Source of the DNA: a virus
IMG/VR virus record: IMGVR_UViG_3300014834_000367
Span: 33,764-97,763 of that record
Length of the DNA stretch: 64,000 bases
Reading direction: 5' to 3' (one strand)
Below, one piece after another: positions 2,675 to 63,411 of this stretch. Under the pieces are notes generated by a model. The model searched no databases, was not told where the DNA came from, and saw only the letters and a program-made list of their open reading frames with translations. Numbering within the stretch: position 1 is the first letter of the stretch; each line of letters opens with the position of its first letter. The position numbers and the translations under genes are program-made.

Positions 2675-2825
2675 TATTAAAGAAGTTATATTTAAGCTAA
2701 ATTATTTTTCATAAATAGGTCGTCCCCACAAAAACAAATTATTTTAGATTAGCAAATAATCTTGGGCAGTTGGGGGAAATATGATACAATATGCGTATCA
2801 TTAATTTATTCTCAATGGAGATTCT

Positions 2826-4076
2826 ATGAAAATTGCAGTGCTACTAGGTCGTGGCGTTGAAGGCTGCGGAGTTACACAGTGCGCAGTTCAACTGCAGAAA
2901 GTAACAGGCGCAACAATTTTTGCTACGTCAGATCATAAATGGCCACGAGCTAAAGGTATTGAATTTCCACATACATTGTTTAAAGCTGCAGATTTATCAG
3001 CATGCCAAGATGTTCAACGGCAGCTCGCCGAAATGGATTTAGTTGTCGTATATTCTGTTCCGTCTATATCGCACCCAGTTGAATGCCAAGACAATTTCGT
3101 AACCTTAGTTGAAAATTTAAATGTTCGAAAAGTCCTGATTAACGTTGACCACAAAAATGCCTCCATCATTCGCAATGCCAAGCTGAAAGAAATCTGTCAA
3201 GCGATGGATGTTCTAATGACACACTCACTTGATAATGATTTTTGCCGTTGGGCCAAAAAGAATGATGTCACAACTAACATCGTTAAAATGGGTTTAGGCT
3301 TTGACTTTGATGGTCATCGTGCCAAGTATTGGAAGCCAATCGAGCAACAAAATGACATGGTCATTCGTTGGATCGGGCGCAGCACTGGTTGGAAAGGTCC
3401 AGATATTATTCTAGATTTGGCTGATGAATATCTCCATGAGCGTGGTTTCATTACAATTCTTGAAGGTCTTGAAGCCAGTATTGGTTACCCGTTTGTTTTG
3501 TATCGCGATGTTAAAAAATTGGCCGGCCGCCGGAAAGTTATGAATTATTTCCGACCAGAAAAAGGTTTGGACAATGTAGAAAAATTTAATAAATCGATGC
3601 ACGGGCAAGAAAAAGTAGGTGTTGGTTCATACTTATATCCTCCATATGTTAACACAGAATGTATGGAAAGGATGTCATTGTCTGCGTTCGGTTCTGATCT
3701 ATATCATCTACCGGCACAGATGTATGGAAACAATATTGAAAATTGTCATGCTGAAGTTATTGCCTCAGGCGCAATTCCTATTTTCCATAAGCACTTTGGT
3801 GACAATGTTGTTCACGCAAAACAAGGTGATCCAATTAGCCAGTGTAAAAATACCGGTACAATTTTGCTTGATACAACTAATTTTGCTGAAGTTGCTGAAC
3901 AGTTAGAAAAATTGGCAAAAGATCGTGGATTACGTGATGAATGGCGCGAAATGGCGTTTTCATTCTGGAAACAACACGCGAATGCCGATGAGATCGTGAA
4001 AGAAATTCTTGAGCTCGCCTTTGTAAAAAGCGATACTAAAAATCAAAGCCGTCAGGCGAGTTTATTACAGTATTAA
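2826..4076 (+). CDS. DNA alpha-glucosyltransferase homologue (T4 AGT family, GT-B fold)
   Basis: N-terminal LGRGVEGCGVT, then YSVPS, DHK..S..RN, HS.DNDF and WIGR...WKG, all resembling T4 alpha-gt. Confidence 0.8.
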   Translation: MKIAVLLGRGVEGCGVTQCAVQLQKVTGATIFATSDHKWPRAKGIEFPHTLFKAADLSACQDVQRQLAEMDLVVVYSVPSISHPVECQDNFVTLVENLNVRKVLINVDHKNASIIRNAKLKEICQAMDVLMTHSLDNDFCRWAKKNDVTTNIVKMGLGFDFDGHRAKYWKPIEQQNDMVIRWIGRSTGWKGPDIILDLADEYLHERGFITILEGLEASIGYPFVLYRDVKKLAGRRKVMNYFRPEKGLDNVEKFNKSMHGQEKVGVGSYLYPPYVNTECMERMSLSAFGSDLYHLPAQMYGNNIENCHAEVIASGAIPIFHKHFGDNVVHAKQGDPISQCKNTGTILLDTTNFAEVAEQLEKLAKDRGLRDEWREMAFSFWKQHANADEIVKEILELAFVKSDTKNQSRQASLLQY

Positions 4077-4096
4077 GAAAAGAGGAGAAAATAAAA

Positions 4097-5044
4097 ATGA
4101 GAGTGTTTATTACTGGAATGGCAGGAATGATTGGTTTTCACCTGGCGCAAAAATTACAATCTGCTGGTCATGATGTTTATGGCATTGATAATTTTAACAA
4201 TTATTATGAACCACAGCTGAAACATGACCGCGATGCCATTTTGGCTAAAAAGGGTTTAAGGACTCATGTTGGTGATATTTGCGATGTTAATTTTGATGCG
4301 TTATTCAAATCTGCTGGCGTGCCAGATGTAGTTGTTCATCTAGCGGCGTACGCCAATCCACGCCATTCAATGGTTTCACCATGGGATTATATTAACACGA
4401 ACATTGGTGGCACTCAAAAATTGATTGAAGCTTGTGAACGCAATGGAATTGATAAAGTTGTTTACGCTTCATCATCATGTGTTATGCATGGCCAACCATT
4501 ACCATGGAATGAGACAGATCGACCAGGTTTACAAAACAATCCATACGGTTGGTCTAAGCGTAGCAATGAATGCCAATTTGGGCATTCCAAAATTGAAAAA
4601 ACAATTGGTCTACGATTCTTTACTGTTTATGGTCCATATGGTCGCCCGGATATGGCACTATTCCTTTTCACTAAAGGTATTATTGACGGTACGCCAATTA
4701 TTGCTTATAATAACGGTAACATGATTCGTGATTTTACGTATGTTGATGACATTGTTCAAGGTGTAGAAATTGTCGTCAACCATACGAATGTGATGCCAAA
4801 GAGTCATGAGATTTTTAATATTGGATATGGAAAACAAGTTCAGCTCATGGATTTCATTCAAAATATTGAAACCGTCGTTGGTAAAAAAGCAATCATTGAT
4901 TATCGCCCAGCACACCCAGCTGATGTTCCGGCAACATGGTCAGACACCAGCAAGCTGCAAGCGTTAGGCTATAAACCAACAACTCCGACAACAGAAGGGA
5001 TTGAACATTTCATCAAATGGTACAGGGGCTATTACAATGTATAA
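4097..5044 (+). CDS. UDP-glucuronate 4-epimerase-like NAD-dependent epimerase
   Basis: ITGMAGMIG, YASSS, YGWSK, LRFFTVYGPYGRPDMA, RDFTYVDDIV. Confidence 0.88.
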   Translation: MRVFITGMAGMIGFHLAQKLQSAGHDVYGIDNFNNYYEPQLKHDRDAILAKKGLRTHVGDICDVNFDALFKSAGVPDVVVHLAAYANPRHSMVSPWDYINTNIGGTQKLIEACERNGIDKVVYASSSCVMHGQPLPWNETDRPGLQNNPYGWSKRSNECQFGHSKIEKTIGLRFFTVYGPYGRPDMALFLFTKGIIDGTPIIAYNNGNMIRDFTYVDDIVQGVEIVVNHTNVMPKSHEIFNIGYGKQVQLMDFIQNIETVVGKKAIIDYRPAHPADVPATWSDTSKLQALGYKPTTPTTEGIEHFIKWYRGYYNV

Positions 5045-5924
5045 AATGAAAAAATTAACAATTGGTATCGTTGGTCATGGTTTTGTTGGAAAAGCTATTG
5101 ATGAAGGTTTTAAATCAACAGGCTTAACTAAAGTTATTGTCGATCCACGACTTGGCACAACAATTATAAATGATTTAGCTCCGATGGTGCCTGAAATTGT
5201 TTTCGTGGCGGTGCCAACCCCGATGGGAGATAATGGCAGTATAGATTCAAACATTATCGAGGATGTGGTTTACCAATTATCTAATCTCACATATAGGCCA
5301 ACTATCGTTATTAAGTCAACTGTAACGCCTCCTATTTTAGATAAACTTTCTAAATTGAGCGATAGAATTGTTTATAATCCTGAGTTTTTAACTGAAAGAA
5401 ATGCCGCACAAGATTTCATTAATGCTGAACTTCATGTGTTTGGTGGACCAGAGCATTTAGTTCATGAGGTATATGAAGCATATCGCGGCTTTTCTGTTTG
5501 TGAAAATTTGCGAAGAGAGAATGTAGTTTTTACTGATCTAAAAACTGCATCAATGATTAAGTACACCATGAATTCATTCTTGGCATTAAAAGTTTTATTT
5601 TTTAATCAGGTATATTCTGTATATAATGCAGTTAACGCGCAGGATTCTTGGGAAAACTTTATTGGTGCTCTCGCAAAAGATACACGAATTGGACCAACGC
5701 ATATGGCAGTTCCTGGCCCAGATGGTCGATATGGCTATGGTGGCGCCTGTTTTCCGAAAGATACTGCCGCGATGCTGAGAATGGCGAATCTAGCTGGCGT
5801 AGATTTTTCAGTGCTGGAAGCTGCAGTCATAGCTAATCAGGAGATTAGGTCGGCATATACTGATCTTGATTCACGCGAAAAAGAACAGAATGTCAATTTT
5901 AATATTTTTAAGAAATCAGCATGA
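5037..5924 (+). CDS. UDP-glucose 6-dehydrogenase family protein (short; lacks the C-terminal domain)
   Basis: GIVGHGFVG, VAVPTP, IKSTV, YNPEFL, GYGGACFPKD. Confidence 0.88.
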   Translation: MYKMKKLTIGIVGHGFVGKAIDEGFKSTGLTKVIVDPRLGTTIINDLAPMVPEIVFVAVPTPMGDNGSIDSNIIEDVVYQLSNLTYRPTIVIKSTVTPPILDKLSKLSDRIVYNPEFLTERNAAQDFINAELHVFGGPEHLVHEVYEAYRGFSVCENLRRENVVFTDLKTASMIKYTMNSFLALKVLFFNQVYSVYNAVNAQDSWENFIGALAKDTRIGPTHMAVPGPDGRYGYGGACFPKDTAAMLRMANLAGVDFSVLEAAVIANQEIRSAYTDLDSREKEQNVNFNIFKKSA

Positions 5925-6460
5925 CACCTAAAGAATATCGTTATCATAACTTTTACATGGACATTGCTCGTAATTGCGCGAGCATGTCTCATGCTTTACG
6001 TAAACAAGTTGGCGCCGTAATTGTTCGTGATGATAATATTATCTCTTATGGTTGGAATGGTACGCCGACCGGCCAGCCAAATGAATGTGAAGACAAGCAA
6101 TATATGCCAGATGAAACTATTTTTTCTAAGCAGCAGGAAGAAGAAACTTGGCCATATGTTGAAGAAAATCCCGATGGTAATTATAAACGTTATTCTCTTG
6201 TGACTAAGCCAACAGTTTTGCATGCTGAACTTAACGCAATTTGTAAATTAGCAAGAACCACCGGAAATAGTGATGGTGCAAGCTTATACGTTACATTATC
6301 GCCATGCCCAGAATGCGCCAAATTATTAATTCAGGCAAAAATCAAAAAAGTATTTTATCTTGAAAAGTATCGAGATACTGCTGGGATAGATTTACTTGAA
6401 AAATCAGGAATATCAGTGGTCAATTTATCAACAACAGATTTATCAGATTTTAATATATGA
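5921..6460 (+). CDS. dCMP deaminase
   Basis: HAELNAI and SPCPEC zinc motifs; GWNGTP. Confidence 0.92.
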   Translation: MTPKEYRYHNFYMDIARNCASMSHALRKQVGAVIVRDDNIISYGWNGTPTGQPNECEDKQYMPDETIFSKQQEEETWPYVEENPDGNYKRYSLVTKPTVLHAELNAICKLARTTGNSDGASLYVTLSPCPECAKLLIQAKIKKVFYLEKYRDTAGIDLLEKSGISVVNLSTTDLSDFNI

Positions 6461-7020
6461 ATCTCGCGCTAAACGCAGAAATGGAAAAAGTTAAAACGCA
6501 ATTTGGTAATTACGCCATCAAGTATGATGGCGTTTATCAACTTTCTGCCGAATTAATTCCAGAATTTTTAATGCTTGGCACACCTGTTTCACGTTTAACA
6601 GTTTATGATAAAAATAATGATATTGAAATTTTTAACAAATTATCGGATGAACAAATTTTAACAGCTACAGATGATGTGCCAAAAATTAATCTGGATTGGA
6701 AAATTCCAGAACCATTTTTATCACTTGATTTGCATGCATTCTTAATTGAAAAATTTTTAGAAAAACAAAATGAGTTTGAAAATAATTTAGATGATGCCGC
6801 ACTAAGATTGCAAAAAGAATTAGAAGAAATAGAAAAAAGAAATTTAACAAATCTTTTTAGAACCATCATATATGTTGTAGATGTATTCAACAAAAAAGAT
6901 GTACCGTGGGGAGTTGGTCGTGGTTCATCCTGCGCCTGTTTCATTTTATATCTTATTGGATTAAATCTCGTTAATCCTCTTGAATACGACATTCCTTTAG
7001 AAGAATTTTTCCACGATTAA
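6457..7020 (+). CDS. DNA polymerase III alpha (DnaE)-like fragment 1
   Basis: GVGRGSS...LYLIGL..VNPLEYDIPLEEFF matches the DnaE GPGRGS...FERFL segment. Confidence 0.8.
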   Translation: MNLALNAEMEKVKTQFGNYAIKYDGVYQLSAELIPEFLMLGTPVSRLTVYDKNNDIEIFNKLSDEQILTATDDVPKINLDWKIPEPFLSLDLHAFLIEKFLEKQNEFENNLDDAALRLQKELEEIEKRNLTNLFRTIIYVVDVFNKKDVPWGVGRGSSCACFILYLIGLNLVNPLEYDIPLEEFFHD

Positions 7021-10961: not shown

Positions 10962-11534
10962 ATGGATATTGATATTGATACCCCATCAAAATTTATTGCG
11001 GCGACAATATTTTCAAATACTGTTAAGGCAAGTATTTTTGATGGCACAAAAATTACACCACACCCGTGCGGCGTTTACTTTCAAGAAATGCCGGTTGATA
11101 TTATGACAAATTTGGCAGCTATTCCTTATGATACTGCTGAAGACTTAGGATATACTAAAATTGACTTTTTGCATCTTCGTGTTTACGATCATTTTAAAAA
11201 TAGAAAAGAAATTGAAGATATGACAAAGCAGTCAACGCCGTGGCAGTTATTACTTTTGCCATCGGTAGTTGAAAAATTATTCCAGCTTTCAAAACATGGG
11301 GAACTTTTGAAAAAATTAAAACCAGCTTCGACTTTAGAATTAGCTGATGCTTTGGCTCTTATCCGGCCTGGCAAATCTGATCTCTTACCAATATATCTTA
11401 AGAATAAAGATGTGGCCAGAAAATTGCTTTATGCCAAAGAAGAAACTGGTTACTCATTTAAAAAATCTCACGCCATTGCATATGCCATGGTTGTTGAATT
11501 ACAACTTAAGTTGGCAGATCTTGATAGGTTATAA
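10962..11534 (+). CDS. DNA polymerase III alpha (DnaE)-like fragment 2 (catalytic aspartates)
   Basis: MDIDID, HPCGVY, KIDFL, ALIRPG, GYSFKKSHAIAYA. Confidence 0.85.
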   Translation: MDIDIDTPSKFIAATIFSNTVKASIFDGTKITPHPCGVYFQEMPVDIMTNLAAIPYDTAEDLGYTKIDFLHLRVYDHFKNRKEIEDMTKQSTPWQLLLLPSVVEKLFQLSKHGELLKKLKPASTLELADALALIRPGKSDLLPIYLKNKDVARKLLYAKEETGYSFKKSHAIAYAMVVELQLKLADLDRL

Positions 11535-11608: not shown

Positions 11609-13132
11609 ATGAATACCATAAACGTTATCAAAAGAAATGGTCTCAAAGAGCCATTGACCATTGAAAAATGGCAAAATCAAATCGCAAATGTGTGTAATGG
11701 CGTAGCGGATGTGAGCCAGAGCATGATTGAAATAAAAGCTCAACCACATTTCTACGACAAAATTACAACACGTGAGATTGATGAAATTACTCTTCGAGCA
11801 ATTGTCGATCTTATCGATGTTGAAGCTAATCCAGACATCGGCCACACGAATTATCAATATGTTGCAGGCAAACAACGTCTCAGCATGCTACGTAAAGACG
11901 TTTATGGGCAGTATGATCCTCCGCGTTTATTTGAAATCGTAAAGAAAAATATTGCTGCTGGGCTATACACTTCTGAACTTCTTGAATGGTATTCAGAAGA
12001 TGATTGGAATAAGATGGATGAAATCATAGATCATAGTAAGGATGAACAATATAGCTATGCGGCAATTGAACAATTAATTGAAAAATATCTTGTTCGTAAT
12101 CGCGCCACAAAGGAAATCTATGAAACTCCTCAAGTTCGTTACATGGTTGCAGCTGCAACTGTCATGCATAAAGAAGAGCCAAATAACGCCAGAATGCGTT
12201 ATATCAAAGAATATTATACTGCGGCCAGTGATGGTCTTTTCACGCTGGCTACACCGGTTCTTGCCGGGCTTGGTACCCCTACTAAACAGTTCAGTAGTTG
12301 TGTTCTTATTCGCAGTGATGATGACCTTGATTCTATCTTTGCTTCTGGCGAGATGATGGCAAAATACGCTGCCAAGCGAGCAGGAATTGGACTTGAAATC
12401 GGAAGGCTACGGCCGCTCGGTTCACCAATTCGTGGTGGCGAGGTTATGCATACTGGCATGATCCCATTTTTGAAAAAATGGTTTGGCGACTTACGGTCAT
12501 GCAGCCAAGGCGGAATTCGCAACGCGTCAGCTACCGTGTTTTACCCAATCTGGCATTATCAGTTTGATGATTTGATTGTTTTAAAAAATAATCAAGGAAC
12601 TGATGAAACTCGCGTTAGACACTTGGACTATGGCGTAGTATTGAGCGCATTTTTCTTTAGGCGTTTCAAGAATAAACAGGATATTACTTTCTTTGATCCG
12701 AATGAAGTGCCAGATTTATATGAAGCATTTTATTCTGATATGAATAAGTTTGAAGCGTTGTATGTGAAATATGAGCAAGATCCAAAACTGCGCAAAAAAG
12801 TTATTTCTGCTGAAGAAGTTTTCAAAAGTGGCATTTTAAAAGAGCGCACTGATACCGGCCGCATTTACCTCGTCTTCATTGATAACGTTCTGAAGCAAGG
12901 TCCATTTGACGGCAAGCATCATCCAATCTATCAAAGTAACCTCTGTCTCGAGATCCTGTTGCCAACAGTTCCGTTTAAATCCCTAGATGATGAAGGTGAA
13001 TTTAAATTAACACTTGATAATGGACAAGAATTAACATTGCCGGGACAACATAAAGTTTTATTGGCTAATGGAGATAAAAAGAAAGTTAGAGAGTTAACCG
13101 AAGAAGATGATATACGGGATTTATTATTATGA
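11609..13132 (+). CDS. nrdA: Ribonucleotide reductase class Ia alpha subunit, N-terminal fragment
   Basis: ATP cone VIKRNG, QFSSCVL, CSQGGIR, QSNLCLEI; ends in a non-RNR tail. Confidence 0.95.
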   Translation: MNTINVIKRNGLKEPLTIEKWQNQIANVCNGVADVSQSMIEIKAQPHFYDKITTREIDEITLRAIVDLIDVEANPDIGHTNYQYVAGKQRLSMLRKDVYGQYDPPRLFEIVKKNIAAGLYTSELLEWYSEDDWNKMDEIIDHSKDEQYSYAAIEQLIEKYLVRNRATKEIYETPQVRYMVAAATVMHKEEPNNARMRYIKEYYTAASDGLFTLATPVLAGLGTPTKQFSSCVLIRSDDDLDSIFASGEMMAKYAAKRAGIGLEIGRLRPLGSPIRGGEVMHTGMIPFLKKWFGDLRSCSQGGIRNASATVFYPIWHYQFDDLIVLKNNQGTDETRVRHLDYGVVLSAFFFRRFKNKQDITFFDPNEVPDLYEAFYSDMNKFEALYVKYEQDPKLRKKVISAEEVFKSGILKERTDTGRIYLVFIDNVLKQGPFDGKHHPIYQSNLCLEILLPTVPFKSLDDEGEFKLTLDNGQELTLPGQHKVLLANGDKKKVRELTEEDDIRDLLL

Positions 13133-13845
13133 AAATTTATAAACCAGCATATCTATACATAAAAATACACAATAAAACAGGTTTAAAATATTTTGGAAAA
13201 ACATCACAAGATCCATATGCATATTTTGGTAGTGGAATTGATTGGTTAAAACACTTAAAAACATATGGCTATGATATTTCTACAGAATTGTTGAATGATA
13301 ATAAACCATATACTGATGAAAACAAATTAATTGAAGATGCGATAAAGTTTTCTATAGAGAATAATATAGTTGAGTCATGCAAATGGGCGAATAAAAGAAT
13401 TGAAAGCGGTGATGGTGGCGATACTTCCATGTGTGAAAACTATATAAAAGCTATGGCATCAAGAAACCAGCGTGGTCCTAATAATCCAATGTGGGGTAAA
13501 AAATCCGTCGCAAAAGGAAAAACTTATGAAGAAATGTATGGGATAGAAAAAGCAAATCAGTTAAAATCTGAAAGAATAAAATCAGCAACTGGTAGAAAAT
13601 TATCCACAGAATCTTTAGAAAAGATGGCAAAATCTATCTCAGCAGCAACAAGAGGAATTCCAAAATCTGAACAACATAAAAAGAATATGAGAAAACCGAA
13701 GACACAGGAACATAAAAATAACCTTAAAGGTCCACGCGAAAGAATAGAATGTCCGCATTGCAAAAATGTAGGCGGAATAAGCCAAATGAAGCGCTGGCAT
13801 TTCTATAACTGTAAATTATTTAAGGATAAAAATGAAAGTAATTAA
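13129..13845 (+). mobile_element. Free-standing GIY-YIG (Seg-like) homing endonuclease with NUMOD3-like repeats, splitting nrdA
   Basis: YLY.K....GLKYFGK, YFGSG, NNPMWGK, KSEQHK; overlaps both nrdA pieces. Confidence 0.8.
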
Positions 13846-14803
13846 AAAGGAATGCATTAGAAAAGTACCGCAAATTGCGCTGTGTACACTTGGTAGTATA
13901 AATTGGGGCAGCTTTAGACACCCAGAAGACATGCGTCGGGCGTGTCGCATACTTCATCGCTCTCTTAACAATATACTTGATTACCAAGATTTTTTGAGTA
14001 TTCATAGCAAATTGTCGAATGACTTTATACGGCCGCTGGGTATCGGTGTTACTAATTTAGCATACTGGCATGCAAAACGCGGATTAAAATATGGAACAGC
14101 AGAGGCATTACAGGAAGTAAAATCTTTCATGGAACATCAAGCATATTACTTGACAGAAGCTAGCGTAGAACTTGCTAAAGAACGTGGTGCATGTCTTCAT
14201 AGTGATAAAACGCGGTATGGACAAGGATTTTTCCCATGGGAATTACGCGCTGAAGGCGTGAATGAACTTGCAAATTTTGCACCAGAGCTTGATTGGGAAA
14301 CTTTACGTGCCAATATGAAAAAGTATGGCGTACGCAACGCAACTCAGATGGCGGTAGCACCAGTTGAATCGAGCTCAGTTGTTATCAATTCAACTAATGG
14401 AATTGAAATGCCAATGAGTTTAATTTCAACTAAGGAAAGTAAAGCCGGTTCATTTACTCAAGTGGTTCCTGAATATCATAAGTTAAAAAATAAATATCAG
14501 CTTATGTGGGAACAGGAAGATTGTGTTGGCTATTTAAAAACAGCTGCAGTTATTGCAGCTTATGTTGATCAAAGCATCAGCACGAATACTTTTTATTCGC
14601 CAAAGCATTTTCCAGATCGTAAAGTTCCATCAACATTAATTGCAAAGAATTTGATGTTGGCACACCATTGGGGGATAAAAAGCTTCTATTATAGCCTCAT
14701 TGAAAAACAAGGTTCAAAATTTGTAGATGAAACGCCGCAAGATACACCGCTTAAACAAATCGATTTTGACGATGAATCCGATTGTGAAAGCTGTAAACTT
14801 TGA
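13832..14803 (+). CDS. nrdA: Ribonucleotide reductase class Ia alpha subunit, C-terminal fragment
   Basis: IALCTLGSIN, RPLGIG, APVESSS, DQSIS, KSFYY, terminal CESCKL. Confidence 0.95.
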   Translation: MKVIKKECIRKVPQIALCTLGSINWGSFRHPEDMRRACRILHRSLNNILDYQDFLSIHSKLSNDFIRPLGIGVTNLAYWHAKRGLKYGTAEALQEVKSFMEHQAYYLTEASVELAKERGACLHSDKTRYGQGFFPWELRAEGVNELANFAPELDWETLRANMKKYGVRNATQMAVAPVESSSVVINSTNGIEMPMSLISTKESKAGSFTQVVPEYHKLKNKYQLMWEQEDCVGYLKTAAVIAAYVDQSISTNTFYSPKHFPDRKVPSTLIAKNLMLAHHWGIKSFYYSLIEKQGSKFVDETPQDTPLKQIDFDDESDCESCKL

Positions 14804-18867: not shown

Positions 18868-19239
18868 ATGACGCAACTTAAAGGCTATGTCGCCAAGGGT
18901 TGGGGACATGAAAATATTTGGGCGACCAATGATAAGTACTGTGGAAAAGCCATGGTGTTTGAGAAACCAGGAGCAAAATTTAGTATGCATTTTCATCAAT
19001 TCAAAGATGAAACTTGGCATGTTATCAGTGGAAAATTTGTTGTACGCTGGATCGACACGAGTAATGCAGAACGCCATGAAACACCATTAGAAGTTGGAAG
19101 TACTTGGCACAACCCACCATGTTTGCCGCATCAGCTTATTTGTATTGAGCCAGGAACAATAATTGAAGTCTCAACTCCAGACAGCGTAGAGGATAATTAT
19201 CGTGTTGAACCAGGCGATAGTCAAGCCAGTAAATCGTAA
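18868..19239 (+). CDS. Cupin (sugar isomerase-like)
   Basis: KGWGHE, SMHFH..KDETW, PHQL, EVST. Confidence 0.8.
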   Translation: MTQLKGYVAKGWGHENIWATNDKYCGKAMVFEKPGAKFSMHFHQFKDETWHVISGKFVVRWIDTSNAERHETPLEVGSTWHNPPCLPHQLICIEPGTIIEVSTPDSVEDNYRVEPGDSQASKS

Positions 19240-19795
19240 GCCGCTGCTTATTGGCTTGGATCGCGACGGCACGATTAATCGTGATTTGGGGACGTACTGT
19301 TACAAAGAGCAAGACTTTGAAATTCTTCCGGGCGTTATTGAAGCTATTAAAAGACTAAAACGCGCAGGACATGTTATAGCAGTTATAACAAATCAAGGAG
19401 GCATAGAAAAAGGCCTTTATACAGAAGTTGAAGTTAAAAAACTGCATGGCATTTTACAGCGTGAATTATTGATTTCTGGCAGCGCTCCAGTAGATGCATT
19501 ATTTTACTCACCATCAAGCAAACCGGATTTTGTTTTAGCTAAACCAAATCCAACCATGTTACAGCAGGCCGAGTTATTATTAGGTCTTAGATTTTCAAAT
19601 GGCGGGTTCTATATTGGAGATGCTAGCAGAGACTTAATAGCAGCTGAGCGCGCAAATGCTACTGCGGTTCTAGTTAAAACGGGAAAAGGCCAAGAAACAT
19701 TCGCCGGCCTCAATGGTCTTAGATTAGCAACTTATCCAAAAATATTTGAAACGTTATTAGACTTTGCTAAATGGCTAGTTCCGGAGGAGAAATGA
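19202..19795 (+). CDS. gmhB: D-glycero-D-manno-heptose-1,7-bisphosphate phosphatase-like HAD enzyme
   Basis: LDRDGTIN, ITNQGGI, KPNPTM, IGD...D, LVKTGKG. Confidence 0.85.
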   Translation: MLNQAIVKPVNRKPLLIGLDRDGTINRDLGTYCYKEQDFEILPGVIEAIKRLKRAGHVIAVITNQGGIEKGLYTEVEVKKLHGILQRELLISGSAPVDALFYSPSSKPDFVLAKPNPTMLQQAELLLGLRFSNGGFYIGDASRDLIAAERANATAVLVKTGKGQETFAGLNGLRLATYPKIFETLLDFAKWLVPEEK

Positions 19796-20214
19796 ACGTT
19801 GTAGTAAATGGAACTTTTGATGTGTTACACGTCGGGCATTTAAGATTATTATCTTATGCCAAGCATTTAGGACTAAAAGAAAATCCTGAAGCAAAATTGA
19901 CCGTGTTGATTGATAGCGACGAAAGAGTAAAACAACTTAAAGGTAATAATAGACCAATAAATTCTCTTTCAGAGCGCCTTGAAATGCTTATAAATTTGCG
20001 TGTCGTAGATGCAGTAGATCAATTTGATTCAGATGAACAGTTATCAGCTTTAATAAAAGGACTGGCGCCAGACATCATGGTGAAAGGTTCAGATTATATT
20101 GGAAAACCAATTATTGGCGCTGAATTTTGCAAAAGGATAGAATTTTATGACAGAACTCCACACTCCTCAACTCAAAAAATCGAAGATATTGCTTCTCGGG
20201 GAAAGTTGCGTTGA
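19792..20214 (+). CDS. HldE/RfaE domain II-like nucleotidyltransferase
   Basis: NGTFDVLHVGH, LKG..RPIN, VKGSDY, SST. Confidence 0.85.
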   Translation: MNVVVNGTFDVLHVGHLRLLSYAKHLGLKENPEAKLTVLIDSDERVKQLKGNNRPINSLSERLEMLINLRVVDAVDQFDSDEQLSALIKGLAPDIMVKGSDYIGKPIIGAEFCKRIEFYDRTPHSSTQKIEDIASRGKLR

Positions 20215-20953
20215 CGAATATTTTTATGGCGTCTGTGAAAGATTAAGTCCAGAGGCACCAGTTCCGGTTTTACGAGTAACTCGCAATTTTTCACTTGATG
20301 GCATGGCCGCAAATGTTTTAAAAAATCTTCAAACACTAGGCCAAGACGTAGAATTTTTTACAGCTTCTGCTGGTCGTAAAACTAGATATCTGGATGAAAG
20401 AAGCGGCCAGCACATAGTTAGAGTTGATGATGATGTTAATTTGACACCATTAGATGGTAAACTTGTTTTTGATAGAATAGCCGATCAATCCTCAAAGATA
20501 GACGCTATTGTTATTTCTGATTACAATAAAGGCTATATTGCGTATGAATTGGTCGAAGAACTAAGAAAACGATTCGCTGGGCCAATTTTCATCGATACCA
20601 AGAAAACAGACCTCAAAAGATTTGAAGGCTGTTATGTTAAAATCAATGAAGTAGAACGTAAAGCAGCAAGTTCTGTACCGGATTCTGGTCTCATTACGAC
20701 TTTAGGAGGAGCAGGCTGTGTTTTTGATGGAGTAACATTTAAAGGTAGAACAGTCGAAGTTGTTGATATTTGCGGTGCCGGCGACACGTTTTTTTCAGCT
20801 CTAGTAGCTAATTTTCTTAATAATACTTATGCAAACTCAATTCATGCCGCAATAGAATTTGCAAATGTCGCAGCAGCAATTTCTGTTAAACATCAGGGCG
20901 TATACGCGCCGTCATATGATGAAATAGAAGAACTTCTTGGGCAGGGGAAGTAA
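20147..20953 (+). CDS. HldE/RfaE domain I-like heptose kinase (PfkB family)
   Basis: RLSPEAPVPV, ISDYNKG, DICGAGDTF. Confidence 0.88.
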   Translation: MTELHTPQLKKSKILLLGESCVDEYFYGVCERLSPEAPVPVLRVTRNFSLDGMAANVLKNLQTLGQDVEFFTASAGRKTRYLDERSGQHIVRVDDDVNLTPLDGKLVFDRIADQSSKIDAIVISDYNKGYIAYELVEELRKRFAGPIFIDTKKTDLKRFEGCYVKINEVERKAASSVPDSGLITTLGGAGCVFDGVTFKGRTVEVVDICGAGDTFFSALVANFLNNTYANSIHAAIEFANVAAAISVKHQGVYAPSYDEIEELLGQGK

Positions 20954-22750: not shown

Positions 22751-23142
22751 CAATAATTTATACCGATACGCGAAAAAAATTAACAAAAAAGCAACAGGCG
22801 AAAGCCAAACAAGCTTTTGATAAATATCAACTTGAGTTTTGCAAAAAGGTTGGTTTAAATGTTGAACAGCTCAAAACAAAACAAAAATTTAAACCAATTG
22901 ACACGTACTCCTTATCATATCGTGGTCAACACGATAAAAAGGTATCTATAGATTCTGGAATTGGAATTGCTGCGAAAAGATCCATCATGGATCCAATGGT
23001 GTTACAGCGTGAGAAACCAGAAATTGTTGAAGCTATTAAACAGAAGGCAATGCGCACCGCGCCCCTCTTTAATAAAGGTGGATTGCAGTACATCTCTGAT
23101 GGTGAAGATTTAACCTCAATTGGAAAAAAGGTGGTAAGATAA
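22747..23142 (+). CDS. Basic hypothetical phage protein
   Basis: Translationally coupled ORF; C-terminal APLFNKGGLQY. Confidence 0.6.
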   Translation: MTIIYTDTRKKLTKKQQAKAKQAFDKYQLEFCKKVGLNVEQLKTKQKFKPIDTYSLSYRGQHDKKVSIDSGIGIAAKRSIMDPMVLQREKPEIVEAIKQKAMRTAPLFNKGGLQYISDGEDLTSIGKKVVR

Positions 23143-23984
23143 TGGCTAAATTTTTAATGGCGTGGAATCGCGAATTCCAGGTACAAAGTGAAATCAATCC
23201 TTGGATGGTCGGCAATAAACAACAAGTTAATCCGATTGTTGCAGCTACACAATGGGAACAACTTGTTTCAACGCTTTATGATTGCGGCGCACAGATTTCT
23301 TTTATGAATTTTGCAGATAAAAGTATTCCAGATATCGTGTTCACCGCAAATGCCGCTGTTGTCGTCAACAAAAAAGTTTTAATTGCAAACTTTAGACATC
23401 CCGAACGGAAGAGGGAACAAGGGTATAATTTTAATCATTTTTCAAATGGCATGTTGCTCGAATATAAAGCAATCACGGTGCCTCAAAAACACATTAGTTT
23501 TGAAGGCGCTGGCGACGCGCTATTAGACAATAAAGGTCGACTTTTCATGGGCTTTGGCTTTAGGTCAACACTTGGCGCAAAGCAAGAACTTGAACTCGCC
23601 TTCCCTGAAGTTTTAGTTAGGCCACTCCAGCTTGTTGATCCACGCTTCTACCATTTAGATACTTGCTTCTGCCCTCTTGAAGGAGCCAATGGAGAGACAG
23701 CAGTCATGTACTATCCTGGCGCTTTTGATGAATATGGCAATTATGTAATTCACAATTGCTTCGATAACATCATCGAGTTAACCGAAGATGAAGCAACGGT
23801 TTTCACTTGCAACGCAGTTCAGGTAAAACAGAATATTGTGTTAAGCGAATGTTCTCAACGGGTTGAAAATGAACTTGCCAAATTTGGCCTTAAAGTACGA
23901 CGTACGCCTTTAAGTGAATTCATGAAGTCTGGCGGTCAAGCGAAATGTTTAACGCTGAGAATTGATCAGATGTTCTCAGAGTAA
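23142..23984 (+). CDS. Amidinotransferase / DDAH-family (arginine dihydrolase-like) enzyme
   Basis: INPWM, PDIVFTANA, FEGAGD, FYHLDTCF, EFMKSGG.AKCLT. Confidence 0.88.
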   Translation: MAKFLMAWNREFQVQSEINPWMVGNKQQVNPIVAATQWEQLVSTLYDCGAQISFMNFADKSIPDIVFTANAAVVVNKKVLIANFRHPERKREQGYNFNHFSNGMLLEYKAITVPQKHISFEGAGDALLDNKGRLFMGFGFRSTLGAKQELELAFPEVLVRPLQLVDPRFYHLDTCFCPLEGANGETAVMYYPGAFDEYGNYVIHNCFDNIIELTEDEATVFTCNAVQVKQNIVLSECSQRVENELAKFGLKVRRTPLSEFMKSGGQAKCLTLRIDQMFSE

Positions 23985-26624: not shown

Positions 26625-27386
26625 ATGGAAAAATTTGGAATTATTCAGAGCCGCGGCCTTGGAGATATTGTTATTGCTCTGCCTATTGCCCATCACTTTC
26701 ACACTGTAGAAAATAAAGAGGTGTATTGGCCAATCTGTGAAGAATTTATTCCAGCAGTTGAGAAACATGTTCCTTGGGTAAATTGGTTATCAGTAAAAAC
26801 TGATAAGACCGGACTCTTCTTTTCCAAAGAGCCACTTAGATTACTTCAGGCCGCTGGCGTATCTGACATGATTTGCCTGTATCAAGCATTAACTAATATG
26901 CCTGAGTTGAAACAAGAGCCATCATTCCAATACATGAAATTTGATCAGTCTAAATATAATAGAGCCGGGATTCCTTTTCTCAATAAGTGGAAGCTTGCAA
27001 AATGCATCTCACGAGATCTAGAGGTCGAACAAGCCGTTTGCAAGAAATTAACTAACGGCAAGCCATATGTGGTAGCCCATTTGGAGGGTTCTGATTATTC
27101 TGCAAATATTGATTTAAGTCATGTCATTCAACAGGGCTATGAATTAATTAAATTAACAAAAGACACAGTATCATCTCCATTTGATGCCATCTCGCTGCTT
27201 GAAGGGGCAGAGGCATTATTTTTACTCGACAGTGTTTATGCAAATATGGTTGATCAGCTTCAGATTGATGTTGATAAGTATTTTATTCCTAGATCTCATA
27301 TCCAATTAACTCCAGTTCTTGGATCAGATTGGACAATTTTAGAGCCAGAACAAATTATCAAACAACGCACAACTATTTTTGGGTAA
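26625..27386 (+). CDS. GT9-like glycosyltransferase
   Basis: RGLGDIVIALP and a C-terminal DS motif. Confidence 0.65.
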   Translation: MEKFGIIQSRGLGDIVIALPIAHHFHTVENKEVYWPICEEFIPAVEKHVPWVNWLSVKTDKTGLFFSKEPLRLLQAAGVSDMICLYQALTNMPELKQEPSFQYMKFDQSKYNRAGIPFLNKWKLAKCISRDLEVEQAVCKKLTNGKPYVVAHLEGSDYSANIDLSHVIQQGYELIKLTKDTVSSPFDAISLLEGAEALFLLDSVYANMVDQLQIDVDKYFIPRSHIQLTPVLGSDWTILEPEQIIKQRTTIFG

Positions 27387-27390
27387 AACT

Positions 27391-28587
27391 ATGAAAATCG
27401 CAATCATCGGCGCGGGGTTAGCCGGCATGTTGCCAGCGTATTATTTAGCAAAGTCTGGGCATAAAGTTACGATCTTTGATCAGGAACGTTATGCGGCGAT
27501 GCGAACAAGCTTCGCAAATGGCGGGCAAATGTCCGTTAGCAACAGCGAAGTTTGGACAACTTGGGCAAATGTCGGAAAGGGCCTAAAATGGCTGGCACAA
27601 AAAGATGCGCCTCTTCTGATTAGGCCGTCTCTCGATCCAGAAAAATTTGCTTGGCTTTTTAAATTCATATTATCTACTGCTCGAGGCGACGCCGAAAAAC
27701 GCACGCTTGAGACCATTAAATTAGGAATTGAAAGTCGTGAATTATACAGCTGTATTGCCTCCGAAGAAGAAATTTCTTTTTCACAGAGCAACTGCGGTAT
27801 CATGCACGTTTATTGGGATAAAGCACAACTTGAAGCAAGTGAAAAAATACAACCACTTTTTGAGAATGCTGGCTGCGGCTGGGAAATTATTAATAGGGCC
27901 AGAATAGCTAGAGTAGCAGAAATAGAACCAACACTGGCCAACCGTTCAGTTTTCATGGCAGGTGCAGCCTGGACGCCAGATGACAGCGTTGGTGACGCGC
28001 ATCAATTCTGTGTACAACTTTTAAGTGTTTTAAAGAAAAAGTATAATGTTTATTTTTCTCATGAATTGTTATCACCCAAAAAATTAAAAGAACTGATTTC
28101 AGAATTTGACACTGTAGTTGTAGCAGCAGGAGTGGGATCTCCAAAATTAGCCAAATCTATTGGTGATAATTTGCCAATTTATCCAGTAAAGGGTTATAGC
28201 ATAACAGTGTCTATGCCTGAAGATAAAGCAAATACATTATTTCCAAAAGTAAGTATTCTTGATGATAAGGCAAAAATCGTGACCAGCACGCTTGGCAACC
28301 GCCTTCGCGTCGCCGGAACAGCAGAATTAGCTGGTCATAATTATGACATTACCCGCAGTAGAATCGAGCCATTGCTTAAATGGGTTCATGCCACGCTGCC
28401 AAAAGTTGAAACAAGAGAATATTCGCAATGGGCATGTTTAAGGCCAATGACGCCAGACATGATGCCTATAGTTAAACAATCTAAGAAAAATCCAAAAGTA
28501 TTTTACCACACGGGCCATGGCCATTTAGGATTTACATTATCACCAGCTACTGCACAACACTTAGCAAAGATGATTGAACAAGTATAA
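27391..28587 (+). CDS. dadA: D-amino acid dehydrogenase
   Basis: IIGAGLAG, TSFANGGQ, IYPVKGYS, RVAGTAE, WACLRPMTPD, TGHGHLG. Confidence 0.9.
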   Translation: MKIAIIGAGLAGMLPAYYLAKSGHKVTIFDQERYAAMRTSFANGGQMSVSNSEVWTTWANVGKGLKWLAQKDAPLLIRPSLDPEKFAWLFKFILSTARGDAEKRTLETIKLGIESRELYSCIASEEEISFSQSNCGIMHVYWDKAQLEASEKIQPLFENAGCGWEIINRARIARVAEIEPTLANRSVFMAGAAWTPDDSVGDAHQFCVQLLSVLKKKYNVYFSHELLSPKKLKELISEFDTVVVAAGVGSPKLAKSIGDNLPIYPVKGYSITVSMPEDKANTLFPKVSILDDKAKIVTSTLGNRLRVAGTAELAGHNYDITRSRIEPLLKWVHATLPKVETREYSQWACLRPMTPDMMPIVKQSKKNPKVFYHTGHGHLGFTLSPATAQHLAKMIEQV

Positions 28588-58255: not shown

Positions 58256-58762
58256 ATGCATTCATCAATTTTGACATCATTCGCGTGGCCAGGTGAACCT
58301 GAAGAAGCGAGTATTAAATTACGCTTAGTGCAGCGCTTGGCCACATACCATGAAGTCATGACATATGGCAAATATGAATTGGTGCATGGCAGAATTTTAT
58401 TGGTTGGAGATACCCCATCACCAAGCAGGCCTGACGACGTAAATTATCATTTTACGCCATTTTTCTCGATGCATAATTCTTCGCGCTGGCTTAATAAGCA
58501 ACTTGAAAAATATCAAATTGATGAAAGTCGTTTAGCGTGGTTAAATTCAACTAGGTTTGATGGCACCCCAGAAGATGTTCGAATTATTTCATTATTGAAC
58601 CCAAGCAGGATTATTGCCTTAGGCGGCGCAGCTAGCAAATGGTTAGGTAATATTCAACATGAGGTTGTTGGACATCCTCAACATCAGAAACGCTTTTTGT
58701 CTACGCAAGAATATCCATTAATGCAACTTCTTGGTGGAAAATTAATTGAGGAGCAGGCGTAA
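58256..58762 (+). CDS. Uracil-DNA-glycosylase-fold protein (divergent)
   Basis: LLVGDTP, IIALG..A, HP. Confidence 0.55.
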   Translation: MHSSILTSFAWPGEPEEASIKLRLVQRLATYHEVMTYGKYELVHGRILLVGDTPSPSRPDDVNYHFTPFFSMHNSSRWLNKQLEKYQIDESRLAWLNSTRFDGTPEDVRIISLLNPSRIIALGGAASKWLGNIQHEVVGHPQHQKRFLSTQEYPLMQLLGGKLIEEQA

Positions 58763-62925: not shown

Positions 62926-63411
62926 ATGAAAATGATCTTCAACAAAGTTCGTGAACTCAAAGACCGTGGCCTGAAAATCGGAATCACATTTTCTACATTT
63001 GACTTGTTGCACGCTGGTCATGTTGCTATGTTGGCTGAAGCCAGAAATCACTGTGACTATCTGATCGCGGCCCTTCAAACTGATCCAACTATTGACCGTC
63101 CTAATACTAAAAATAAGCCGGTTCAATCAATTGTTGAACGTCAAATTCAACTTGCGGCCACCCGGTACGTCGATGAAATTGTTGTTTATCAGACCGAAAA
63201 AGATCTTGAAGACATTATGTTGACGCTGCCAATCAATGTCAGAATTCTTGGCGTTGAGTATCTTGGCAAAGAATTCACTGGTAAGGAGATTTGTCAACAA
63301 CGTAATATAGAATTGATCTACAACAGTAGAGATCATAGCTTTAGCTCAAGCAGCCTAAGAAAGCGCGTAGCCGAATCAGAAGCCAATTCAAAGCTTGCTA
63401 AAAACAAGTAG
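62926..63411 (+). CDS. Glycerol-3-phosphate cytidylyltransferase-like protein (TagD family)
   Basis: TFDLLHAGH, KNKPVQSIVER, RDHSFSSS.LR. Confidence 0.85.
   Translation: MKMIFNKVRELKDRGLKIGITFSTFDLLHAGHVAMLAEARNHCDYLIAALQTDPTIDRPNTKNKPVQSIVERQIQLAATRYVDEIVVYQTEKDLEDIMLTLPINVRILGVEYLGKEFTGKEICQQRNIELIYNSRDHSFSSSSLRKRVAESEANSKLAKNK

Follow-up and report, generated by a model that had tools for sequence, protein, structure and literature searches.

The T-even phages carry glucosylated 5-hydroxymethylcytosine (5hmC) in their DNA, and in T4 an alpha-glucosyltransferase (AGT) adds plain glucose to this base from host UDP-glucose. The second DNA glucosyltransferase of T2 and T6 defines another family, TAGT (PF20691; PMC13216743). 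Glycosyltransferases (GTs) from metaviromes widen this picture: hexuronic acid on 5hmC (HexA-5hmC) has been demonstrated by liquid chromatography-mass spectrometry in Escherichia coli, both with a phage GT-A enzyme plus its partner epimerase and with another GT alone, the isomers being different, and genes for ThyS homologues, dCMP deaminase and epimerases were also noted beside GT clusters (bioRxiv 10.1101/2023.12.21.572611). The DNA analysed here, a stretch of 64,000 nucleotides referred to as the window, comprises bases 33764-97763 of the IMG/VR virus record IMGVR_UViG_3300014834_000367, a linear contig of 97.7 kb with a CheckV completeness of ~29%. It carries an AGT homologue followed by genes for a nucleotide-sugar epimerase (EPI), a short UDP-glucose-dehydrogenase-like enzyme (UGDHs) and a dCMP deaminase (Table 1).

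With a probability of about 0.5, the block combines donor synthesis and sugar transfer in one cassette that adds a hexuronic acid to phage DNA after replication. In this scheme UGDHs would oxidise UDP-glucose to UDP-glucuronate with NAD, EPI would invert C4 to yield UDP-galacturonate, and the AGT-family GT-B enzyme would move the uronic sugar, rather than glucose, onto the hydroxymethyl group of 5hmC in duplex DNA. The acidic sugar would then protect the DNA against restriction enzymes and CRISPR nucleases as well as against enzymes that recognise glucosyl-5hmC. The two parts of the proposal differ in strength: the cassette probably serves DNA modification, and the odds that its sugar is a hexuronic acid are roughly even. 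A role in DNA hypermodification with a phage-made uronic donor is favoured because a hydroxymethylase gene adjoins the cassette in related phages and because the same two sugar-nucleotide enzymes also pair with TAGT.

The transferase is a clear member of its family. It scores 103 bits against PF11440 (cut-off 25; phrog_2888 E 6e-68) and aligns over its full length with T4 alpha-glucosyltransferase (PDB 1xv5, E 3.5e-38; residues 1-395 onto 2-396). Every residue that is invariant in an alignment of 24 marine and enterobacterial AGTs is retained (43 columns, including R9, G10, E12-V16, D108, H109, W182-R185, W189-G191, E213, E216, E305, H308 and E310), and the protein carries the N-terminal RGxEGCGV loop, the DH pair and the WIGR...WKG, EGxE and E-x2-H-x-E signatures. 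An IMG/VR search returned at least 300 AGT matches at E <= 0.001. In the AGT tree, all but one of the homologues linked to EPI and UGDHs form a single clade (clade A) on a long stem of 1.52 changes per site, separate from the clades in which AGT occurs without these enzymes, and the window AGT is nested within clade A with support of 100/99. No cultured phage was found with a clade A AGT, the best cultured match reaching 31% identity, and near-identical DNA was found in none of the cultured phages. The linkage to EPI and UGDHs, the separate clade and an insertion in the protein argue indirectly for a donor other than glucose. Group-specific AGT residues were also considered as a signature of the donor and rejected. 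They track phylogeny, because the AGT of one linked locus (L031) has the residues of the AGT-only groups and that of a locus with non-adjacent UGDHs (L007) has those of clade A.

Among solved structures, the closest relatives of EPI are 5u4q (E 1e-66), BcUGAepi of Bacillus cereus (6zl6, 2e-42) and MoeE5 (2e-37), with GalE-type enzymes at 1e-26 or weaker. The first of these was deposited as a dehydratase, and we take it to be the Klebsiella UDP-galacturonate epimerase. EPI reaches no NCBIfam equivalog (GalE 119 bits against a cut-off of 262). It has the short-chain dehydrogenase/reductase (SDR) fold, with PF01370 matched over its full length, a GMAGMIG motif spanning residues 7-13 and a YGWSK motif at the position of Tyr149/Lys153 in BcUGAepi. 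Alignment to 6zl6 shows T126 replaced by S, S127 kept, S128 replaced by C, and both T178 and R185 kept, the latter in a GRPDMA motif; most phage copies have Cys at the position of BcUGAepi Ser128, and 35 of 46 relatives share the motif FFTVYGPYGRPDM. In BcUGAepi, Arg185 holds the carboxylate of UDP-galacturonate together with a Thr/Ser network (PMC12338863). The closest solved relatives and the carboxylate-binding residues both point to an epimerase of the UDP-glucuronate 4-epimerase type.

The dehydrogenase is less orthodox. UGDHs contains the NAD-binding and central domains of UDP-glucose dehydrogenase (UGDH) and the catalytic Cys motif GGACFPKD; across 28 homologues the motifs GHGFVG, NPEFLTE, KYTMN and GGACFPKD keep the catalytic Cys, Lys/Asn and Asp of UGDH invariant. 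The C-terminal UDP-binding domain (PF03720) is missing from the protein, whose alignment to 3gg2 stops at residue ~310 of 450, and a conserved new C-terminal tail stands in its place. The score against TIGR03026 is 127 bits, below the cut-off of 190, and UGDHs reaches the NCBIfam cut-off of no UGDH equivalog. Its predicted structure (pLDDT 88) superposes on the first two UGDH domains, with a TM score of 0.74 on the query and ~0.5 on the UGDH targets. The enzyme is widespread, with at least 7,688 matches among the best 8,000 candidates scored, and the ~120 homologues listed are all of 281-309 aa, mostly ~287, every one without PF03720. A separate PF03720 gene was found neither in this record and three large relatives (G000-G003) nor in the complete Kyanoviridae genome C48C1, a search in which 13 of 14 control genomes were positive; a split C-terminal domain encoded elsewhere was accordingly rejected for these five records. 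The sequence-only reading had named the gene a UGDH. A dehydrogenase gene is indeed present, but what it encodes is filed here, on its domain content, as a truncated two-domain UGDH-like subfamily and not as a standard UGDH, because the defining UDP-binding domain is missing.

This architecture raises the alternative that UGDHs oxidises something else, either another sugar nucleotide or a sugar already attached to DNA, in which case the adduct would differ from glucuronic or galacturonic acid. The loss of the UDP-binding domain throughout the listed homologues, with no supply in trans, would fit such a change of substrate, as would the low equivalog scores and the tail that replaces the domain. 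Yet the UGDH catalytic residues and the NAD site are all invariant, and the constant partner EPI, which has the carboxylate residues of UDP-glucuronate 4-epimerases and a full nucleotide-binding domain, needs UDP-glucuronate; a different substrate is therefore held to be improbable. A comparably slim chance is given to a more speculative scheme in which UGDHs would oxidise the sugar after its transfer, converting glucosyl-5hmC to glucuronosyl-5hmC in the DNA, or would use UDP-glucose only by means of the new tail; the cassette would then be a mobile unit passed from marine T4-like phages to the jumbo phage, acting there on an acceptor base supplied by an unseen enzyme.

Support for hexuronic DNA glycosylation comes from the distribution of the cassette. 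Scans of IMG/VR with the AGT and with the UGDHs alignment yielded 105 loci, and the order AGT-EPI-UGDHs is repeated in ~20 independent, divergent marine phage contigs (L001-L006, L010, L011, L028, L032, L033, L063, L070, L084, L085, L091, L092, L095 and L101). At these loci the identity to the window proteins is 54-60% for AGT, 57-73% for EPI and 43-54% for UGDHs. The linkage lies far beyond chance, and the conserved order excludes the possibility, raised by the sequence-only reading, that it would not hold in relatives.

The cassette-bearing relatives are T4-like marine phages of ~150 kb. Their genes run gp43, MazG-like, primase-like, cupin, cytidylyltransferase-like, a thymidylate synthase (TS) homologue and dCMP deaminase, and continue with a small protein, AGT, EPI, UGDHs, a C5-methylase-like gene, UvsX, gp41 and ThyX. 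The TS homologue matches T4 dCMP hydroxymethylase (PDB 1b49) at E 3e-68 with Cys148 and Asp179 kept, and by these sequence marks is a dCMP hydroxymethylase of the T4 gp42 type. All full-length copies read RSND...ND, which under the diagnostic of PMC13326640 assigns them to the dCMP-specific 5-hydroxymethyl type rather than to the 5-hydroxy type. Wherever the contig reaches far enough in front of the cassette, this gene is found 1-6 kb upstream of AGT, with 10 copies whole and 3 truncated by the contig edge, and the dCMP deaminase adjoins it.

Further genes accompany the module in these phages. The C5-cytosine-methylase-like gene, of ~400 aa (L091:10809-11999; PF00145 E 4e-19), stands directly 3' of UGDHs, or of AGT where EPI and UGDHs are absent, and occurs in 36 loci of phages with the 5hmC pathway, including L001, L006, L010, L012, L024, L033 and L092. 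Just upstream of AGT, 16 loci encode a conserved protein of ~125 aa with no clear Pfam family (L014:4399-4791, L091:7440-7811), whose sole counterpart in the record, at window 58391-58729, is weak (29% identity, E 7e-6). The cassette-bearing relative G001 has a KDO-8-phosphate-synthase-like open reading frame (ORF) and a cupin gene just upstream of its cytidylyltransferase and hydroxymethylase genes (L110:3-719, 706-1047); Kdo-modified cytosine has been reported for a metavirome GT-B enzyme (bioRxiv 10.1101/2023.12.21.572611).

A second line of support is that UGDHs, usually with EPI, also adjoins TAGT, a DNA glycosyltransferase family unrelated to AGT. Upstream sequence of at least 5 kb is available for 35 of the UGDHs-seeded loci; AGT or TAGT lies within 5.4 kb in 20 of these, and the hydroxymethylase is present in 10. 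T4-like marine phages with TAGT, EPI and UGDHs (L071, L039, L056, L057, L059, L068, L082 and L106) show no gp42-type hydroxymethylase within 10 kb. In phages of this arrangement TAGT sometimes occurs in two copies and sometimes together with a GT4-like gene. TET enzymes were considered as the source of the acceptor in those that lack the hydroxymethylase and were dropped, the search giving no match with a Tet_JBP profile that was silent in the controls as well. The acidic sugar on a hydroxymethylated pyrimidine that the sequence-only reading proposed gains from the conservation of the cassette, the neighbouring hydroxymethylase of the relatives, the pairing with TAGT and Arg185 and Thr178 of EPI, and loses from a UGDH that is without its UDP-binding domain.

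The phage that carries the window block has a different background from these relatives. The best matches to its clamp loader (48% identity) and to the pieces of its split PolIII-alpha (45-48%) come from the jumbo phages RsoM2USA, PA5oct, XacN1 and Xoo-sp13, the piece at window 10962-11534 being closest to Xoo-sp13, XacN1 and RsoM2USA. These protein matches place the uncultured marine phage among the jumbo phages of the RsoM2USA/PA5oct/XacN1 type and not with the gp43-bearing T4-like phages, and they fit a genome of ~340 kb. Little is shared with the T4-like relatives apart from the cassette, the deaminase, the clamp loader genes and a small number of sugar-nucleotide genes. The cassette most likely came from marine T4-like phages by horizontal transfer, because the window AGT is nested among theirs while the rest of the genome has little in common with them. 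A scan of metagenomes for further contigs of this phage gave only relatives at <=50% identity.

Several observations weigh against hexuronic DNA glycosylation. The dehydrogenase is without its whole UDP-binding domain, with no separate copy in the records searched, which leaves its substrate unproven, and no donor-specific residue signature could be defined from the AGT alignment. The AGT of L031 is linked to EPI and UGDHs and lies outside clade A, and one clade A AGT (L007-L009, G005) sits 13 kb from its UGDHs, in a phage with a canonical ThyA. No AGT or TAGT is nearby in 15 of the 35 UGDHs loci described above, UGDHs often stands alone, and the complete genome C48C1 has EPI and UGDHs with no AGT, TAGT or PF00303. 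From C48C1 and these 15 loci it follows that EPI and UGDHs together have at least one role independent of AGT and TAGT. There are also loci with TAGT, EPI and UGDHs and without hydroxymethylase or TET, such as G002, a 177 kb record (86% complete) with no PF00303 or Tet_JBP match. In the window phage, the 97.7 kb record has no homologue of hydroxymethylase, ThyA, ThyX, MazG-like dCTPase, TAGT or C5-methylase, and no TET/JBP match, the latter being uninformative since the Tet_JBP profile was silent in all control genomes. Given that the hydroxymethylase is adjacent in the T4-like relatives, the window phage differs in the very feature that defines the acceptor, and AGT occurs in none of the five cultured relatives of the jumbo type.

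Those loci in which the sugar-nucleotide enzymes do without a DNA glycosyltransferase bear on the alternative that AGT adds plain glucose to 5hmC as in T4. EPI and UGDHs would then be auxiliary metabolic genes with another purpose, such as remodelling host surface polysaccharide or lipopolysaccharide (LPS) against superinfection, or feeding another transferase. In pelagimyophages, UDP-glucose 6-dehydrogenase, rfaE and glycosyltransferases have been published as a means of LPS O-chain modification (PMC7029224), and AGT-only clades occur beside the hydroxymethylase (L012-L025). However, that study labelled the hydroxymethylase a second thymidylate synthase, so that DNA modification was not considered there. 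The invariant gene order, with genes often overlapping and translationally coupled, is difficult to reconcile with unrelated functions, and the cassette lies within the replication and 5hmC module rather than in a hypervariable tail-fibre or LPS region. The long-stem clade formed by the linked AGTs, and the partnership of EPI and UGDHs with a second, unrelated transferase family, also speak for a joint function. Plain glucosylation by AGT is for these reasons considered unlikely, and a uronic donor for the transferase is preferred.

The acceptor in the window phage is the other point at which the interpretations part. The statement of the sequence-only reading that no hydroxymethylase or TET gene is visible holds for the window and extends to the whole 97.7 kb record. 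Of the components sought for the nucleotide pathway of T4-type 5hmC, namely hydroxymethylase, MazG-like dCTPase and deaminase, the deaminase alone was found in the record, which has no PF00303 match. All five cultured relatives of the jumbo type possess ThyA, far from the clamp loader, and the fragment does not; because of this, nucleotide-metabolism genes must lie in the part outside the record. The absence of the hydroxymethylase from a ~29%-complete record is accordingly weak evidence, and the gene would have to lie in the ~70% of the genome outside it. In RsoM2USA, the closest relative, there is a second TS-family gene besides the canonical ThyA (L141, MG752970.1 7739-8398). Its product is 34% identical to marine dCMP hydroxymethylase and has the dCMP-type Asp, which suggests C5-modified cytosine in that phage.

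If the hydroxymethylase is absent from the whole genome, the jumbo phage would have acquired the cassette horizontally without its usual acceptor. No 5hmC would be made, and the cassette would either act on something else (5-hydroxymethyluracil (5hmU), another base or a molecule other than DNA) or be decaying. The rearranged neighbourhood, in which the deaminase follows the cassette and Nudix and glutaredoxin genes precede it, would suit such an orphan state, as would the failure to find within 97.7 kb a gene that adjoins the cassette in T4-like relatives and the lack of AGT in the cultured jumbo phages. T4 beta-glucosyltransferase is described as able to glucosylate 5hmU in some contexts (PMC4111573). 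Decay is contradicted by the three ORFs, which are intact with complete catalytic and invariant residues, and by near-identical copies of AGT (99% identity) and UGDHs (97% identity) on 8-9 other contigs, which indicate that the cassette is maintained in the population. The low completeness of a record that also misses the ThyA universal in cultured relatives, and the dCMP-type TS homologue of RsoM2USA, count against the loss of the acceptor. A cassette without 5hmC is thus judged quite unlikely; under the main reading the acceptor would be 5hmC made by an enzyme encoded elsewhere in the genome.

The organization of the block in the window is summarized in Table 1. The genes that the sequence-only reading had recognized, namely those for the AGT-like, epimerase, UGDH-like and deaminase proteins with Nudix upstream and the replication block downstream, were all recovered at the positions it gave them on the plus strand, which carries every gene between 2016 and 7020. 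AGT and EPI are separated by 20 nt that hold a strong ribosome-binding site, the start of UGDHs overlaps the stop of EPI by 8 nt, and the deaminase gene overlaps each of its neighbours by 4 nt. Because the junctions overlap or are closely spaced in this way, the stretch from Nudix to the polymerase piece reads as one putative, translationally coupled early operon. A promoter match lies in the 150 nt between the glutaredoxin and AGT genes, the one sizeable non-coding gap of the block; sigma-70-like matches are as frequent in shuffled as in real sequence, which makes this match weak. A role of the Nudix protein as a dCTP/dNTP pyrophosphatase is only an inference, and the gene has no homologue in the cassettes of the relatives, where a MazG-like gene is found instead.

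Table 1. Features of the AGT-EPI-UGDHs block and its flanks, in window coordinates.
Feature	Length	Position	Strand	Supporting matches and remarks
Nudix hydrolase	145 aa	2016..2453	+	PF00293 E 8e-9; phrog_1185 E 1e-17
Glutaredoxin	74 aa	2450..2674	+	PF00462 E 2.8e-14; start overlaps Nudix stop
Sigma-70-like promoter match		2763..2790	+	TGGGCA, 16 nt spacer, TACAAT, TG extension; 9/12 match
AGT-family GT-B DNA alpha-glycosyltransferase homologue, clade A	416 aa	2826..4076	+	PF11440 E 2.3e-29; 1xv5
EPI, predicted NAD-dependent SDR nucleotide-sugar 4-epimerase, UDP-glucuronate 4-epimerase type	315 aa	4097..5044	+	PF01370 E 3e-47
UGDHs, short UDP-glucose-dehydrogenase-like enzyme	295 aa	5037..5924	+	PF03721 + PF00984 only
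dCMP deaminase, T4 type	179 aa	5921..6460	+	PF00383 E 2e-24; phrog_174 E 3e-55
Split DnaE-like (PolIII alpha) polymerase, first piece		6457..7020	+	PF07733 E 1e-12; phrog_11127 E 2e-33

Downstream of the deaminase, the replication block contains genes for the clamp loader, ribonucleotide reductase and the split PolIII-alpha pieces. The DnaE-like polymerase is divided over small separate genes (6457-7020 and 10962-11534), as in jumbo phages of the Rak2/XacN1 type, and NrdA (11609-14803) is interrupted by an ORF of 238 aa with no PHROG match (13129-13845). Other parts of the window hold what resembles a second sugar-nucleotide route. Its members are a cupin at 18868-19239 (E 1e-37 to the phrog 'cysteine dioxygenase'), a weak match to phosphoheptose isomerase at 19202-19795, a sugar kinase of the PfkB family at 20147-20953 and, at 62926-63411, a cytidylyltransferase-like protein that is 62% identical to the one adjoining the hydroxymethylase in T4-like relatives. 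By analogy this set resembles GmhA/HldE of NDP-heptose synthesis and may feed DNA glycosylation too; heptose is placed on 5hmC by a metavirome cluster that encodes a cytidylyltransferase together with a GT-B enzyme (bioRxiv 10.1101/2023.12.21.572611). A protein with the DDAH/amidinotransferase fold (window 23142-23984) and a DAO-family FAD oxidoreductase (27379-28587, E 3e-57) are unusual phage cargo.

If the cassette does work as proposed, phages of a very abundant, uncultured marine group would carry a negatively charged sugar on their cytosines, and the sequencing and enzymatic treatment of marine viromes would be biased. The LPS auxiliary genes of pelagimyophage-like phages and their 'second thymidylate synthase' (PMC7029224) would need a new interpretation, and an alpha-GT-family enzyme with a new donor would join the toolbox for labelling 5hmC. 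It would also raise the question of how a UGDH functions without its UDP-binding domain. Of general interest are the truncation of the dehydrogenase and how abundant the module is in the ocean; the window adds that the cassette apparently moves between unrelated phage backbones.

An acidic sugar on phage DNA is in itself not new: unrelated phage enzymes have already produced HexA-5hmC, and the DNA of Bacillus phage SP-15 carries glucuronolactone phosphate. Within a limited literature, no paper was found on an alpha-GT homologue coupled to a UDP-glucuronate epimerase and a truncated UGDH. What is new in the window is the jumbo-phage backbone and the separation of the cassette from the hydroxymethylase.

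SP-15 resembles the proposed system in having a uronic acid on its DNA (glucose and glucuronolactone 1-phosphate on dihydroxypentyluracil) and a phage-encoded UGDH, which is a full-length enzyme (436 aa, 27% identity) encoded beside glycosyltransferases and a UDP-glucose pyrophosphorylase. By contrast with the window, its modified base replaces thymine, the uronate is linked by a phosphodiester, the UGDH is complete and there is no AGT homologue. The individual sugar-nucleotide enzymes compare in a similar manner with their bacterial counterparts. EPI has the same fold as BcUGAepi and MoeE5, along with their YxxxK motif and the Thr178 and Arg185 that bind the carboxylate, and differs at the Ser128 position; UGDHs shares with bacterial UDP-glucose 6-dehydrogenases the NAD domain, the central domain and the catalytic Cys/Lys/Asn/Asp, whereas the C-terminal domain is confined to the latter.

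The metavirome 'subclass II' clusters likewise pair a DNA glycosyltransferase with an adjacent sugar epimerase, and this adjacency is the only feature that the window has in common with the subclass: its transferase is GT-B, no C5-methylase homologue was found, and the Tet_JBP profile was silent in the record and in the controls. The published clusters are set apart, by their description, through GT-A enzymes in 5mYOX/TET post-replicative pathways, with C5-methyltransferase genes alongside, whereas the GT-B AGT of the window is tied in relatives to the pre-replicative gp42 pathway, and the window phage brings its own truncated UGDH.

The T-even system provides the full-length homologue of the transferase (31% identity to T4-like AGTs), a T4-type dCMP deaminase matched within the window operon and, in the relatives, a gp42 homologue of ~55% identity. 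It differs in that the window operon adds two sugar-nucleotide enzymes, which implies a donor other than glucose, and in the AGT itself, which groups in a distinct clade on a long stem and has, after the EGLE motif, a basic insertion of ~20 aa; moreover, the 98 kb available from the window phage hold no gp42 or gp56 homologue and its backbone is not T4-like. The chemistry of HexA on 5hmC is no longer unprecedented. The cassette is best read as a variant both of the T4 system for 5hmC glucosylation and of the published clusters of a GT with an epimerase.

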